Shown here piece after piece: positions 4,965 through 63,394 of a stretch of DNA of 64,000 nt. This stretch comes from Octopus vulgaris (taxonomy: Eukaryota), in the NCBI GenBank assembly GCA_951406725.2, contig OX597824.1:83514001-83578000 (forward strand), written 5' to 3'. Numbering within the stretch: the first letter of the stretch is position 1; every line of letters begins with the position of its first letter. A program made the translations under genes and the position numbers. The notes under the pieces were generated by a model. That model was not told the origin of the DNA and made no database searches. It was given only the letters and a program-made list of their open reading frames with translations.

Positions 4965-5063
4965 ATGGCAGGAGTTGAAACTGCTGTACGTCAAATTGAA
5001 CTAAAATGGCCAAATGTACCTGAGCAATTAATCAAAGGGAACAAATTCCTTAAATGGGAAGAG
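4965..5063 (+). CDS. PLCB: Phospholipase C-beta, coding exon 1 (MAGVETAVRQIELKWPNVPEQLIKGNKFLKWEE)
   Basis: ATG at 4965; 99 nt; donor GAG|GTGAGT; peptide matches the PLC-beta N-terminus/PH start (L.KG.KF.KW.E). Confidence 0.95.
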
Positions 5064-9200: not shown

Positions 9201-10524
9201 GTTTTAAAAATCAACAGCTACCTAATCAAAATCACAAAGCTACAAGATAATGCCTGATTAGTTCAAGGCAATGTGGATAAAAAAGGATTAATTTTGGCAG
9301 AATAATGCGAACACTAAAGTGTTAAGCACAAGGCTAACAATTTTGAGGATGGGATAAGTCAATTACACTCACCCCAGTGCACAACTGGTACTTATTTTAT
9401 TGACCCTGGAAGGATGAACAGAAAAGTCAACCGCAGCAGAATTTGAACTCAGAATGTACAGACGGATAAAACGTCACTAAACATTTTTCCCCTGCATGCT
9501 AACAGTTCTGCCAGCTCTCCATCTTGAGCTGCAACTAATAATGGTTTCAAATTTTGGCACAAAGCCAGCAATTCCAGACAGGAGGTAAGTCAATTACACT
9601 GACCCCAGTGATCAACTGGTACTTACTTTATTGGCCCAAAAAAGGATGAATGGCAAAGTGGAATTTGGTGGAATTTGAACCTAGAACGTAAATGGATGAA
9701 ATGCCATTAAGCATTTTGTCTGGATGGTTACAGTTCTGCAGTTTGTCACCCTGATACTGCAACAAAGAATGGTTTCTGATTTAGGTTTGTGGATACCTGA
9801 AGTTACAGGTAGTAACCTGCTACTCACATAAATTCTACCAGGAATAAGAATGAACCTAAGTTAAATCATCAATAATTTCTACCATAAGCAGAGGCCACTA
9901 AGGTTTATAGGGAAGGGAAATAACCACAATGCTTTAATGGGACTTACTATAGCAGAACGATGAGCGCTCAAGAATTTATCTACGACAGAATTTTATCTCA
10001 GACACAGGCATGGCTGTGTCTGAATTTGCTTCACAACAATGAGGTTTTGAGTTCACATCCTATGTGTGGCACCTTGAGTGAGTGAGTGTCTTCTATTATG
10101 GCCTCAGGTCAATGAATGCTTTGTGAGTGAAATTTGGGAGACAGATACTGCATGGAAGCCCATAGGATATATATATATATTCATCATTTAATGTCTCCTT
10201 TTGTATACTGGCATGGGTTGGATGATTTTGACATGAACTGACAAACCAGAGGGCTGCAATGCCAAGCTCCAGTATCTGCTTTGGCATAGAAATGGATGCA
10301 CTTCTTAACACCAACCACTTCACAGAGTGTGCTGGGTGCTTTATTTGTGACACTAGCAGTGGTGAAGTCACCAAGTACTTGCAAGACAAGATCCCTCAAC
10401 CGTGTGGGGCATAGTACTGAGAGATGAGAAAAATATGATAGAAGAACAGGGGCAAGTGTCTTGCTGAAGAGAATACATGGCTGAGAGAGAAAGGGAGGGA
10501 GGGAGGGAGAGAGAGAGAGAGAGA

Positions 10525-55305: not shown

Positions 55306-55404
55306 GTACGGTCTGATATGAATCTCTCCCCCTTTCTCTCTCTCTCTTTATCTATCTATCTGTCATATCTATCTATCTATCTATCTATCTATCTGTCTGT
55401 CTAT

Positions 55405-55511
<107 letters not shown>

Positions 55512-55533
55512 GTCTATCTATCTCTATCTCGCA

Positions 55534-55591
<58 letters not shown>

Positions 55592-55666
55592 CACCATTTC
55601 AGAAAAGACTGCCCCTTAGTCTCAACAATTATTTCATCATTTCAATTTATCTTTAATTTACAACAG

Positions 55667-58413: not shown

Positions 58414-58577
58414 ATCCCAGAACAAAGGCAACATCAATACCGAGATGTTCAGAGACTTCCTCAACGAAATGCAGAGACATCCAAGCTTACACAAGACCCT
58501 TTTCCCTCTTTACACAGATGCTCAATGTCTGAGTTTGATTGCAGAATATGAATCTGCTGTCAACAAGAAAGGAAAAA
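58414..58577 (+). CDS. PLCB: PLC-beta exon 8 (SQNKGNINTEMFRDFLNEMQRHPSLHKTLFPLYTDAQCLSLIAEYESAVNKKGK)
   Basis: Acceptor atcatttcag; the only nearby phase-1 donor is A|GTGTGT at 58578; FLN..QR.P.L...LFP motif. Confidence 0.9.
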
Positions 58578-59563
58578 GTGTGTAATATCAAATAGATTCT
58601 TCTTTCATTGATATCCTATCACTAAATTTTTTGTAATGGATAACCCTTTAGCATGCATCTTACTCTGTTGTATTGAATCATATTGTTTCAAATTAATCAA
58701 CTTTTATATGTATATCTTCAATCTCTATATATTCTGAATTTAATAATTTGCTATTTTCTTTTTTTTATTATTATCATTCCTTTACTACTCAAATTAGGAA
58801 GAGCCCCTTTTCACTTCTGATTACTCCCTATTCACTTAATTTTCCATGCTAGCATAGGTTGGACGGTTCGACTGGAGTCTGGGAAGCCAGGAGAATGCAC
58901 CTGGCTCCAGTCTGATCTGGCAGTGTTTCTACAGCTGGATGCCCTTCCTAGCGCCAACCACTCCGTAAGTACCCACTACACTCATGGAGTGGTTGGCATT
59001 AGGAAGGGCATCAAGCTGTAGAAACACTGCCAGATCAGACTAGAGCCTGGTGCAGCCTCCTGGCTTCCCAGACCCCGATCGAACTGTCCAACCCATGCTA
59101 GCATGGAAAGCGGACGTTAAATGATGATGATGATGATATATAATACTTATATTAATTAAAAAATCATGCATTATGTCATAGTTCGAGACTTTGATGATGT
59201 GATTGTATATTTTTAGAATGACATCTCAGGGTAGGTGTGAGAGGCTGGATCTGTCCAGTTTCAACATAAAACAGGTGGAATATTTGATATGGCCTGTTTT
59301 AATACTAATGAGTCAAATTCCTTAATATCAGTTTTGCTGTTATTGTTAAGCCCTGTGGGGGCAACCCTGACTGAGCAAACTTTGGCTCAAAGGTGCTCCA
59401 GCCTTGACCATCCCATCTATATAGAGGGCTACATTATTCAAGGTTGTAGTGCAGCCTATTTCAGTACCTTGCTGATTTGATGCTAACTTATTTGACTTCA
59501 GAAGTTTTAATGATTTTCCTGCTTTCTTCTCTTTCTTCTTTTTCTTGCTTCCTTCCTTCTTTC

Positions 59564-59602
<39 letters not shown>

Positions 59603-59906
59603 TCCTCTCACTCTCCCCTCTCTCTCCTCCCCCTCTGTTTATGTGTGTAAGCATCTAATAATGTATGTTTGCATTTTGTCCAATCTTTCTCTCTCTCTCT
59701 CTCTGTTACTCTCTCTAACTGTATGTGAATATTTCTGTGCACATGTGTGTGTGTGTGTGTGTTTGCCTTCAGTGCCAAAAAGTACTGTTGCCAAAACAGG
59801 TCGAATATTAAGTCAGCTATGCTGAATCGTTAGCATCCAGACAGCTGTTCCCAATTGTCTCGTTCCAATTATTTAATGTGTCCTTTCATTATTCAACCAG
59901 ATGTGT

Positions 59907-59968
<62 letters not shown>

Positions 59969-60267
59969 GTACACACACAATAAATACAGAAACCAGAAAC
60001 CAGCCTTGAGAAGAACCTTTGATCCTTTAATTATATATATATATAATTTCTTTGGATTTTTTTGACATACAATATACAATAAAGATTCTGTTTACTCCCA
60101 CCCTCTAAGTTATATTTCTTTTATAAATCTCATTAATATCTTGACCTGACTAATTCCATCACATCTGCATCAAATTCAAAATCCACCTTGCTAATATATG
60201 AACATTTTTCTTCTTTCATTTCATATACATATGATGTCAAATGATTTATCTACTGAAATGCTTACAG

Positions 60268-60273
60268 AAAAAG
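60268..60273 (+). CDS. PLCB: PLC-beta 6-nt microexon (AAAAAG), exon 9
   Basis: tgcttacag|AAAAAG|gtaagt; phase 1/1; inclusion gives KKGKKKGQL and restores the Gly before QL. Confidence 0.8.
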
Positions 60274-60295
60274 GTAAGTCACCTTCAAAAGTCAT

Positions 60296-60374
<79 letters not shown>

Positions 60375-61190
60375 CAAAAATGGGACAAAAACGCAAAACA
60401 TCCAGACAGTTAGGTGATACAAAAAAGGGACAACAAAACATCCAGACAGACGATACAAAGAAAACAAGGACGGGTCATTCAGAGTTTTCTTTCCTCAGTC
60501 GAGTTCCAGATTATCTTTGCAATTTTGGCTGGTTATACTCAAGATTGCTCCAATCTGGCCAGCCCCAAGGAAAAACTAAGCTAAGAGCACTAGATTCCTT
60601 GGAAGAAAGCAGTGAATGTATATGAAAACAAAGACAGAAAAAAACCGGAGAAATGGTACACAAATGCAAATAACAGGACATTAACAACGGGTGTCTTTTG
60701 ACTAAGGATGAATTAAATTAAGCTGGCACGCATCCTATTTTAAAATACTTATAAATTATTCATCAATTGTAATTTTTTTCTCAAATTTTTTGTGCTTGTT
60801 TTTTGAAGTATGAGAATTTGTTCTTTAATTGTATTGCTCTTGTCATTCACAAATGATTGAATGCTCACTTCCTCCAGGCGATGGAAGGGTCGCTGTGGCC
60901 CGCATGAGTGGCCAGCCAGAAATCCCAACTTAACCTATGACTTCTTTCTTTGGGGTTGGTTAAAAGACTTTGGAAGAACTTGAAGGGCGAATACAATAAG
61001 TTATCTCTTCTATCCCCACAAGATTTTCTGGTGAAACCAGTTGATGCAATTCCTGGGTGACTCAAGAAGCTGTTGGTGACATCTGTTTTAAATAAAACCT
61101 CATACTTAAAGCTTTCCTCTCATATCCATTTTTTTTGTAAAAATTACAAATATTAAATAATTTATAAGTATTTTGAAATAGGGAGTTACT

Positions 61191-61252
<62 letters not shown>

Positions 61253-61303
61253 AAGGTATGTAGAAAAATACAACATGGACAAGAACGTATAACTGTTAGA
61301 AGA

Positions 61304-61352
<49 letters not shown>

Positions 61353-61597
61353 TGGAGGCGCAATGACCTAGTGGTTAGGGCAGCGGACTCGCGGTCGTAG
61401 GATCGCAGTTTCGAAGCTCCAGCAGGGGGTGGTGGCGATCCCTGCTGTACTTTTTCGCCACAACTTTCTCTCACTCTTTCTTCTGTTGGGCTGCTCGCTT
61501 AGCCAGCGGGGTGGCGTCATTTGAAGGCTAAAACAATGCGAAGCGCATTGTGACCAGCGATGTGTAACAACATCTGATGGCCTGGTCGGTCACGGTG

Positions 61598-61632
<35 letters not shown>

Positions 61633-61865
61633 TATATATACATACATATATATATATACATACATATAAAATTCAGTAGCAAATTTAAAGCAGTGCTAGT
61701 GTTGTAAACATTATCAACTGCACATACTCAATGTATGTGTATCGTGTGTTGGTTCTCTGCTGTTTAGCACTTGGGGAATATAACTCCAAACTTACAGGGA
61801 AAAATTCAATTTAGTATAAAATCAAATTTCACAATATAAATATATAATATATATATAAATTAAAG

Positions 61866-62078
61866 AAAACCACTATTATGTAATTCAAACAATGATAGAC
61901 ATAAACCATATCATATAGAAAAAACAAAATATATTATAAAACATATAACTAGGCCACAAAAAGTATTAATTTTTTTGTACTTTTTGTGATCTAGTTATAT
62001 GTTTTATAATATATTTTATTTTTTTCTATATGATATGGTTTATGTCTATCATTGTTTGAATTACATAATAGTGGTTTT
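61866..62078. repeat. ~210-bp AT-rich palindrome, related to the element at ~3840-4190
   Basis: Arms aaaaccactattatg... / ...cataatagtggtttt; shared upstream block ccaaacttacagggaaaaattcaatttag. Confidence 0.85.
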
Positions 62079-62085
62079 ACTCTAA

Positions 62086-62480
62086 TCTTTATATATAAAA
62101 GAAAGGTTGTGTGTCTGTCTACTCCGATTTAGATTCCTAACTACTCCCACATTTTGCAGTGCAGTTTAACCAAAACCGGGTATCTTATAGTCGTGATTCA
62201 TATCGAGCCCTTCTGGGTATTAGCGTGCATCTACGATGAGTCTACAATTTAAAAAAAAATTACCATCATTTTTTTCCATTTTAATGCATTCTTTCGCTAT
62301 TATATAAGGAAGTAACTCTCTAAAAATGTCTACGATGAGTCAACGATTTAAAAAAAAATTTACCATCATTTTTTTCCATTTTTAGTGCATTTTTTTGCTA
62401 ATTTTTGGCTATAACTTTCTAAAAATGCTTATATAGTTATTTCCCTTACAAACCCGAGCAACGCTGGGCGATACTGCTCG
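62086..62480 (+). mobile_element. Non-autonomous Helitron, family 1, with ~100-bp internal duplication
   Basis: Same ends as 30627 but 3' CTCG; block tctacgatgagtc...atgcatt repeated. Confidence 0.8.
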
Positions 62481-63009
62481 TATATATATAAAACATATAT
62501 AATATATAAATAGAAACAAACAAACATTTGGTTTTTTATAAGCAATGAAATGTGTATTGTATGATACAAATAAGATGATTTGTTTTCGAACATAGAATTG
62601 CCTTTAGAACAGCATGAATACTGGGTAAATTGTTCTTACAAAGTGGAAAACTTTGTTAACAAATTGCCATAGGTCTCGAACCCATATCGCTCAAGACTCC
62701 AGCTGAGTGCTTTACCATTAAGCTAAACTGCTCCTTCAGAAATTCATCCACAAATTTAGATGTTAAATGTGTGTGTATGTGAGAGGAAAAGAAGCTATAG
62801 GATGTTGCACAAGTATTCATGGACCCAGCTCTTAGGTCAGTGCTTCTTATAGTAGAATTAGCCGTAAGCTACTGAAGGTGATTATGTAACACCTGTTCTT
62901 TCATCATCCATTGACATGCATACATCTTCAACTCCCTTCATATCCACCCATCCAAATCTTTTCCACCCATGTTTCTCTCTACTTTTTTCTATTGTCTACT
63001 TATACACAG

Positions 63010-63156
63010 GTCAGCTGACAAAAGAAGGATTGCTGTATTTCCTTATGTGTGAAGAAAATAATCTTACCCCAATGCATCGGTTGGATTTGGGGGCCAACAT
63101 GAAGCTGCCCCTTGCGGCTTACTACATCAATTCTTCCCACAACACCTACTTGACAG
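63010..63156 (+). CDS. PLCB: PLC-beta exon 10 (QLTKEGLLYFLMCEENNLTPMHRLDLGANMKLPLAAYYINSSHNTYLT), start of catalytic X domain
   Basis: Acceptor tatacacag, donor G|GTAAGG; 147 nt; invariant PI-PLC SSHNTYL motif with catalytic His. Confidence 0.97.
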
Positions 63157-63394
63157 GTAAGGCCTGACCAATTATCTTATATTACATGTACCAGGTGAGG
63201 GGCTGACAAAGGGTGAGAGTTTGTGATAAATTAATGGTGATAATCAGAGTGATGGCGTCGATGGGGAATAATGAAGGGATGGCATTTTTTTTTGAAGGAG
63301 AGATTTTTGTGTGGACACATGCAAAAGAGGATGAGGGTGGGCGTTAATGTGAACAGTCTGCAGTAATCATCACTATCACCCTTGTGATCACTAC

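Follow-up and report, generated by a model that had tools for sequence, protein, structure and literature searches.

A transcript-supported six-nucleotide exon in an octopus phospholipase C-beta gene and candidate counterparts in other lophotrochozoans

Described microexon systems and the host gene

The closest described counterparts of the exon analyzed here are the microexons controlled by SRRM3/4 in vertebrates and by the eMIC domain of Srrm234 in Drosophila, which are short and frame-preserving and have a strong donor. The available portions of two sources (10.1101/2024.09.17.613571; PMC8797185 = 10.1101/2021.02.24.432780) describe the targets of eMIC as bearing a UGC near the acceptor AG, a distal branch point and pyrimidine tract, and a long AG-free zone; the UGC is present in 74–79% of human targets and is not strictly required (10.1101/2024.09.17.613571, available in part). 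The octopus exon resembles these microexons in all of the above, and an eMIC-type domain is encoded in the same genome. On the other hand, skipping of the octopus exon changes a conserved residue, and its upstream donor is poor whereas that of the fly eMIC targets is strong (PMC8797185, available in part). Neural enrichment and eMIC dependence are known for the vertebrate and fly systems, whereas the octopus exon was recognized from sequence and assembled contigs. Among fly tissues, photoreceptors are described as having the most divergent eMIC profile (PMC8797185, available in part).

A second parallel is offered by fly spg/DOCK3-4 and syd/SPAG9, in which short exons occupy the same position of the same gene across distant lineages and map to interaction surfaces (10.64898/2026.09.05.749416). 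Unlike the PLC slot, which is lophotrochozoan, those cases are found in insects and vertebrates and come with measured PSI. Repeated exon gain at hotspots is also documented (available portion of PMC8797185; 10.64898/2026.09.05.749416). Microexons, eMIC programmes, and the residues of the included form in cDNAs and crystal structures are thus already known. Residues 293–295 of the retinal PLC-beta of squid and cuttlefish (3QR0, 3QR1) correspond to the included octopus form; the structures and cDNAs show these residues but not their origin from a separate exon, and genome-based models drop them. A literature search, in which subscription journals were thinly covered, found no published account of this exon, of PLC-beta microexons, or of mollusc or annelid microexons, and PLC is absent from the main text of a recent comparative study of 20 species that included octopus (10.64898/2026.09.05.749416).

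The window is a stretch of 64,000 nucleotides of Octopus vulgaris contig OX597824.1, and positions below refer to it unless a genome coordinate is given. From position 4965 to its end, the window contains nine ordinary exons and the beginning of another that match the protein model P0003. The encoded enzyme is approximately 87% identical over the first 700 residues to 3QR0 and 3QR1, which we take to be the squid and cuttlefish enzymes named PLC21. The two exons flanking the microexon match these structures on either side (Table 1) and leave three residues between them, of which skipping of the microexon supplies one and inclusion all three. In a quick IQ-TREE analysis of 51 rows, the coleoid enzymes were placed inside a 32-row protostome group of Plc21C/beta1-3 type (SH-aLRT 98), separate from the beta4/NorpA clade (SH-aLRT 100), and the coleoid stem was long (branch length 1.2), indicating a strongly diverged enzyme.

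Two genome searches recovered the host gene and a NorpA-type gene as PLC-beta loci, plus one further weak match; no third locus was found among the best 5 and 3 candidates scored. The NorpA/PLCβ4-type paralogue (G000:C11:90091719-90093482; L005, L007, L012) lies 6.5 Mb away on the same contig. It has the same phase-1 intron, 1,488 nt long (G000:C11:90091849-90093336), and keeps Asn at the position of human PLCβ3 Asn260; a consensus-donor scan of this intron found no microexon candidate. The models P0003 and P0008 end at 728 and 711 residues, as opposed to about 1,127 in relatives, and the annotation of the host gene also appears truncated at the C2 domain. PLC is listed among photoreceptor genes, with the paralogue unspecified, in the available portions of squid single-cell papers (PMC9839350, PMC12240821).

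The microexon and its splicing in coleoids

Contigs of four sequencing runs (X1, X5, X11 and X14) were aligned to the two flanking exons separately because long (CA)n and (TA)n tracts surround the microexon. A run search gave 14 runs that are RNA by guess and none recorded as RNA; the four aligned runs are likewise RNA by guess, and their contigs join exons across introns. The upstream exon was covered exactly by contigs of all four runs. A 3,786-nt contig of X1 leaves position 58577 at record base 1098 and reaches 63008 at base 1103; therefore, 63010 corresponds to base 1105, and exactly 6 nt separate 58577 from 63010. The loose ends of the X1 and X5 contigs, which belong to two studies and carry two organism labels, read GG followed by nine A and then AG|GTCAG, which is the inclusion junction. 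The contig of X14 has AG before GTCAG with 5 nt of context only, and X11 has no contig on the downstream exon. The downstream side of the junction was covered in three runs, whose tissues are not given and whose contigs lose rare variants. Within these limits, no skip junction (58577-63010) was seen in the three runs, nor any partially spliced junction in the contigs aligned to the flanking exons; none of the four runs showed editing at the final base of the upstream exon, a change that would give back Gly in the skip form. The exon is 6 nt long, within the 3–27 nt range of microexons, has its own AG and GT, and is present in spliced transcripts. It is a real, spliced exon, and we hold this to be practically certain.

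That the six extra bases reflect misassembly or the use of an alternative splice site is scarcely credible, albeit the junction falls in a homopolymer: joining 58570-58577 to 60268-60273 gives a run of ten A in the mRNA, and the matching run is frameshifted in 3 of the 11 decapod Logan products, probably through sequencing or assembly slips. Neither end of the intron contains AAAAAG (GTGTGT follows 58577 and ACACAG precedes 63010), while AG|AAAAAG|GT occurs once in the 4.4-kb host intron. Moreover, the contig match resumes at 63008, not at 63004, the six bases are skipped at this point in two other genome models as well, and two runs contain all 17 words and RNA-type runs 16.

The first-pass annotation had proposed this exon from the letters of the DNA, and its account of the splice signals stands: the acceptor AG (60266-60267), AAAAAG, GTAAGT, TGC, branch-point-like motifs and pyrimidine tract are all in the sequence (Table 1), the AG-free zone put at about 155 nt counts 156 nt, and both outcomes keep the reading frame (6 nt, phase 1-1), inclusion giving K-K-G and skipping S. 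Of the junctions that it named for checking, those of inclusion agree with the X1 insertion and the X1 and X5 inclusion junction described above. The donor, AAG|GTAAGT, is strong by consensus match. Among the 10 acceptors of the gene examined, the microexon acceptor is the only one with TGC in the last 20 nt. A census of both strands of the window counted 7,309 AG dinucleotides, 38 of which have no other AG in the preceding 150 nt or more; TGC lies within 15 nt of five of these 38, and among the five only the microexon AG is followed after 3–27 nt by a GTAAGT or GT[AG]AG donor. The AG-free zone alone is a weak marker in microsatellite-rich DNA, as the two flanking constitutive acceptors have AG-free runs of 244 and 130 nt, the former due to a microsatellite. 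The more proximal CTAAT in Table 1 is the likely branch point on its motif and position. By its flanks, the exon fits a candidate eMIC target.

Table 1. Microexon, flanking exons and splice signals in the window
Feature	Position	Strand	Evidence
Upstream coding exon: EF3, EF3-4 linker, helix E of EF4; phase 1 end, last base A	58414..58577	+	contigs, 4/4 runs; 3QR0/3QR1 239-292
Upstream 5' splice site GTGTGT, poor consensus match	58578..58583	+	sequence
AG-exclusion zone, 156 nt	60110..60265	+	sequence scan
Candidate distal branch-point-like motifs CTGAC (60146) and CTAAT (60150)	60146..60154	+	motif
Branch-point-like CTAAT, its A 72 nt 5' of AG	60191..60195	+	motif
Displaced polypyrimidine tract, 17/18 pyrimidines	60205..60222	+	sequence
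UGC 4 nt 5' of acceptor AG, putative eMIC-type enhancer	60259..60261	+	sequence
6-nt microexon AAAAAG	60268..60273	+	X1/X5 inclusion junction; 17/17 transcript-, cDNA- or structure-type coleoid proteins
Consensus 5' splice site GTAAGT of the microexon	60274..60279	+	sequence
Downstream coding exon: EF4 beta-strand and helix F, start of catalytic X box	63010..63157	+	contigs; 3QR0/3QR1 296-343

The window has further short AG...GTAAGT candidates, at 9582, 28607, 29173 and 29179, which were set aside, as they have no AG-free zone. One of them, CAG|GAG|GTAAGT at 9582-9584 in the 30-kb first intron, is by motif a possible 3-nt phase-0 exon. Separately, positions 58810-59300 (approximate) of the host intron were matched in each of the four runs by a very large number of contigs, with a summed depth reaching about 6e5, and are probably a high-copy interspersed element.

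Twenty-one coleoid proteins span the site. Fourteen read KKGKKKGQ in frame, three Logan products read KKGKKK and then shift frame, and four have the skip form. All 17 transcript-, cDNA- or structure-type sequences carry the microexon residues, with K-K-G invariant among them; cDNAs reading only KKGKSQL, which the first-pass annotation had named as the outcome that would speak against the exon, did not appear. It rightly anticipated the match of the included form to squid and cuttlefish PLC and the failure of gene predictors, as all four genome-based coleoid models omit the exon. These four skip-type sequences (P0003, P0008, P0009 and P0010) come from genomic contigs, of which the 99.98-Mb contig of this genome gave two, and contigs of 14.7 Mb and 381 kb one each. 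P0010, from the 381-kb contig, has Arg at the site, the residue expected from skipping in phase 1 if the Gly codon is split G|GA, and where aligned across the first 700 residues it is 99.9% identical to the Logan product P0016, which has the inclusion form. Thus, the exon probably forms a separate unit that annotation overlooks in a decapod-type genome too, and so in both main branches of coleoids, as judged from these protein sequences. None of the 11 Logan proteins of the decapod cluster, which stand for 68 contigs, skips the exon.

Two exons of the octopus genome, separated by 24 kb, together encode an SRRM_C/eMIC-type domain. The first gives a PF15230 match above the cut-off (32.6 bits, E 3.3e-4; G000:C25:37317492-37317638; L001, L013-L017), and the next, from G000:C25:37341781 onward, continues in frame with the segment ARKRPVPY, which we take to end the eMIC domain. 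This machinery, together with the UGC, the distal branch point and tract, the AG-free zone and the consensus donor that match the description of eMIC targets, would accord with the regulatory idea of the first-pass annotation, moved to the EF4/Gβγ loop: in cephalopods the exon would be a live neural or retinal switch that depends on eMIC and is skipped in non-neural tissues. Only two PLC-beta loci were found, so the host gene may serve many tissues, the sampled transcripts may be mostly neural or from the eye, and both forms are annotated in bivalves (see below). We nevertheless regard such a switch as rather unlikely in view of the contigs of the three covering runs and the decapod Logan proteins, in which inclusion is the only form seen, and of the variable residue left by skipping. 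The upstream exon ends in A in coleoids, and skipping gives Ser in one lineage or Arg in another. Both displace a conserved Gly, which suggests that the coleoid skip form is no longer under selection. As no skipped transcript was seen and skipping replaces this Gly, we lean toward near-constitutive inclusion of the microexon in coleoids, bearing in mind that the tissues of the runs are not given and that contigs lose minor forms.

Position of the inserted residues in the EF hands

Inclusion converts K-S-Q to K-K-K-G-Q in the EF4 loop. The microexon encodes residues 293–295, and the corresponding slot in human PLCβ3 lies between R288 and D289 (8EMX numbering, by alignment). His264 (58490-58492) aligns to PLCβ3 Asn260 in the EF3-EF4 linker. 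The microexon thus lies 29–31 residues after the Asn260 equivalent and beyond a 15-residue helix (273–287), which by helix geometry would place it roughly 22 Å away. In an AlphaFold model of P0004, the linker spans residues 258–272, followed by helix 273–287, loop 288–295, strand 296–297 and helix 299–306; the model is poor (pTM 0.33, mean pLDDT 60), and local secondary structure only was taken from it. Loop residues 290–292 have pLDDT values below 50. On the alignment and the model, the microexon lies in the EF4 loop, about 30 residues past the GAP linker, and its earlier placement in the EF3-EF4 loop that supports GAP activity does not hold.

The Asn260 equivalent is His in all six coleoid sequences checked and Asn in all 230 other PLC-beta rows. 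In PLCβ3, Asn260 is needed for GAP activity on Gαq (PMC6499889, available in part), and coleoid PLC may, on its sequence, turn Gq off differently or less. The suggestion of the first-pass annotation that the microexon could tune Gq turn-off via the EF3-EF4 GAP loop might draw on the linker with Asn260, which mediates GAP activity in PLCβ3 (PMC6499889, available in part), and on an indirect effect on the linker, possible within the same EF3/EF4 pair. We consider this very unlikely, as helix 273–287 separates the exon from the Asn260 equivalent by the distance given above, and Asn itself is replaced in every coleoid sequence checked.

A different partner is suggested by the structures of human PLCβ3 (8EMW/8EMX), in which the homologous EF4 loop N282–R288, M293 and E294 take part in an interface with Gβγ (available portions of PMC10194004 and PMC13626650). 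The residues listed for the Gβγ-2 interface are N282, Q284, F285, R288, M293 and E294 (PMC10194004 Table S2), the interface is described as mostly electrostatic (PMC10194004, available in part), and mutants of the EF-hand site impair Gβγ binding and activation in cells (PMC13626650, available in part). The slot R288|D289 aligns within these interface residues. By homology to PLCβ3, the insert is predicted to tune Gβγ docking rather than Gq GAP activity. Unlike the octopus enzyme, the vertebrate rows examined have no insert at R288|D289, and Gβγ binding at the EF-hand site was not found for any invertebrate PLC in the literature covered.

All 47 named lophotrochozoan orthologues have Gly immediately before H/Q-L-S/T in this loop, as do 153 of 171 rows that are not of NorpA type; this residue is presumably the canonical position-6 glycine of the EF loop. 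Other residues occupy the site in at least 28 of 59 NorpA-type rows and in PLCβ3. Since NorpA/beta4-type enzymes and PLCβ3 accept a residue other than Gly, good folding of the skip form is quite conceivable.

Inserts at the same slot in other lophotrochozoans

Among the 120 top homologues, 106 had the canonical loop, one had gained a single residue elsewhere, four were coleoid sequences of the included form, and nine had 2–7 extra residues. These nine were other rows of lophotrochozoan type, and their inserts lie at the same point as the microexon. The 117 further, shorter matches, mostly from arthropods and vertebrates, comprised 109 canonical loops, Ridgeia with DPEVPK, five loops that differed otherwise and two rows without an anchor. 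No slot insert was found in the arthropod, deuterostome or cnidarian rows examined. A search of 50% representatives added no insert: 92 of its 132 new rows had no anchor, and of the 40 rows with both anchors 38 were canonical and two resemble intron read-through.

In gastropods, the insert was EK in P0031 (a Logan product in the caenogastropod clade of the tree) and EE in P0375 (one Haliotis species). In bivalves, it was EEE in Crassostrea virginica (three rows, two of which have older accessions, against 14 rows without it, among the matches listed), GDVEP in three clusters of scallops, EQSSLDE in the clams Ruditapes and Mercenaria, and DGTLEE in one model of Dreissena. Capitella has DPQVPK in place of the Ridgeia sequence above, and two Logan products in an annelid-rich clade also have an insert at the slot. 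The first residue is E, D or G in every named insert, and a G comes directly after the insert, both of which are predicted by phase-1 exon boundaries of G...G type. As a separate observation, P0042 of C. virginica has another optional insert, 17 residues long, in EF2; it lies at a different exon boundary of this gene, at a site matching the window intron 55306-55666.

Included and skipped forms coexist within one RefSeq release in five bivalves, with included/skipped counts, among the matches listed (at most 15 per cluster), of 8/2 in Ruditapes, 5/1 in Mercenaria, 5/2 in Argopecten, 1/1 in Pecten, and 8/2 in Mizuhopecten, for which one skipped GenBank model was also found. No insert was present among the matches listed for Magallana (0/17), Ostrea (0/15), Saccostrea (0/7), Mytilus (0/16), Biomphalaria (0/11), Physella (0/6), Patella (0/4), Mya (0/5), Lineus (0/6), Dimorphilus (0/3) and Tubulanus (0/2). 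These absences may be annotation misses, as in octopus. From a comparison of protein rows, we infer that the inserts of other molluscs and annelids would be cassette exons, with an upstream exon that would end in G in bivalves, gastropods and annelids, so that both isoforms would keep the Gly. The two-residue inserts KK, EK and EE would each correspond to a 6-nt exon with G as its last base, and they may represent one orthologous exon.

The slot could instead hold nearly neutral additions to a tolerant surface loop, gained repeatedly at an intron hotspot and fixed in coleoids with no regulatory role. The length (2–7 residues) and sequence of the inserts vary among classes, their distribution is patchy, recurrent exon gain is common, and the loop is of low confidence in the model. 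We find this doubtful, and quite improbable overall: K-K-G does not vary among the included coleoid sequences, inserts are kept within groups (DP-VPK in Capitella and Ridgeia, GDVEP in scallops, EQSSLDE in clams), the two-residue form occurs in two gastropod lineages as well as coleoids, and no insert was found in the homologous intron of the NorpA-type paralogue or in the arthropod or vertebrate rows.

We propose, with a probability of about 0.5 for the explanation as a whole, that the microexon occupies an old lophotrochozoan slot, near-constitutive in coleoids, that tunes Gβγ docking on the EF hands. The slot would be an old microexon position on the loop that binds Gβγ; its use would be optional in bivalves, whereas coleoids would have largely fixed it in the on state. 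Recognition would occur via the strong donor, the distal branch point, the pyrimidine tract and the UGC, probably aided by the eMIC domain of Srrm234. Skipping would retain the loop glycine in bivalves and gastropods, in which the upstream exon would end in G, and would leave Ser or Arg in coleoids, in which it ends in A. The insert would fall within the Gβγ-2 interface, which is mainly electrostatic, between the equivalents of PLCβ3 R288 and D289; the mostly acidic inserts of bivalves and gastropods would weaken Gβγ binding, and the basic KK of coleoids would reshape Gβγ docking or add affinity for the membrane. The docking step would follow from homology to human PLCβ3, a distant relative. 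An extended version, in which an ancient neural microexon of lophotrochozoans is a splice-controlled charge switch for Gβγ, acidic inserts lower neuronal input, and coleoids fixed the basic form and replaced the GAP Asn, rewiring a photoreceptor enzyme, seems to us unlikely.

As for what the exon means, it corrects the gene models of cephalopod PLC-beta, as the four models checked encode the wrong loop, and it adds a molluscan candidate eMIC target that transcripts support. The second Gβγ site of PLC-beta dates only from 2023, and work on its role continues; the isoforms of scallops and clams with and without the insert would be natural variants in this site and offer a direct test. If the slot is ancestral, a rare microexon position would have been kept across two phyla, and a cross-phylum splice slot on the Gβγ-2 surface is a testable lead.
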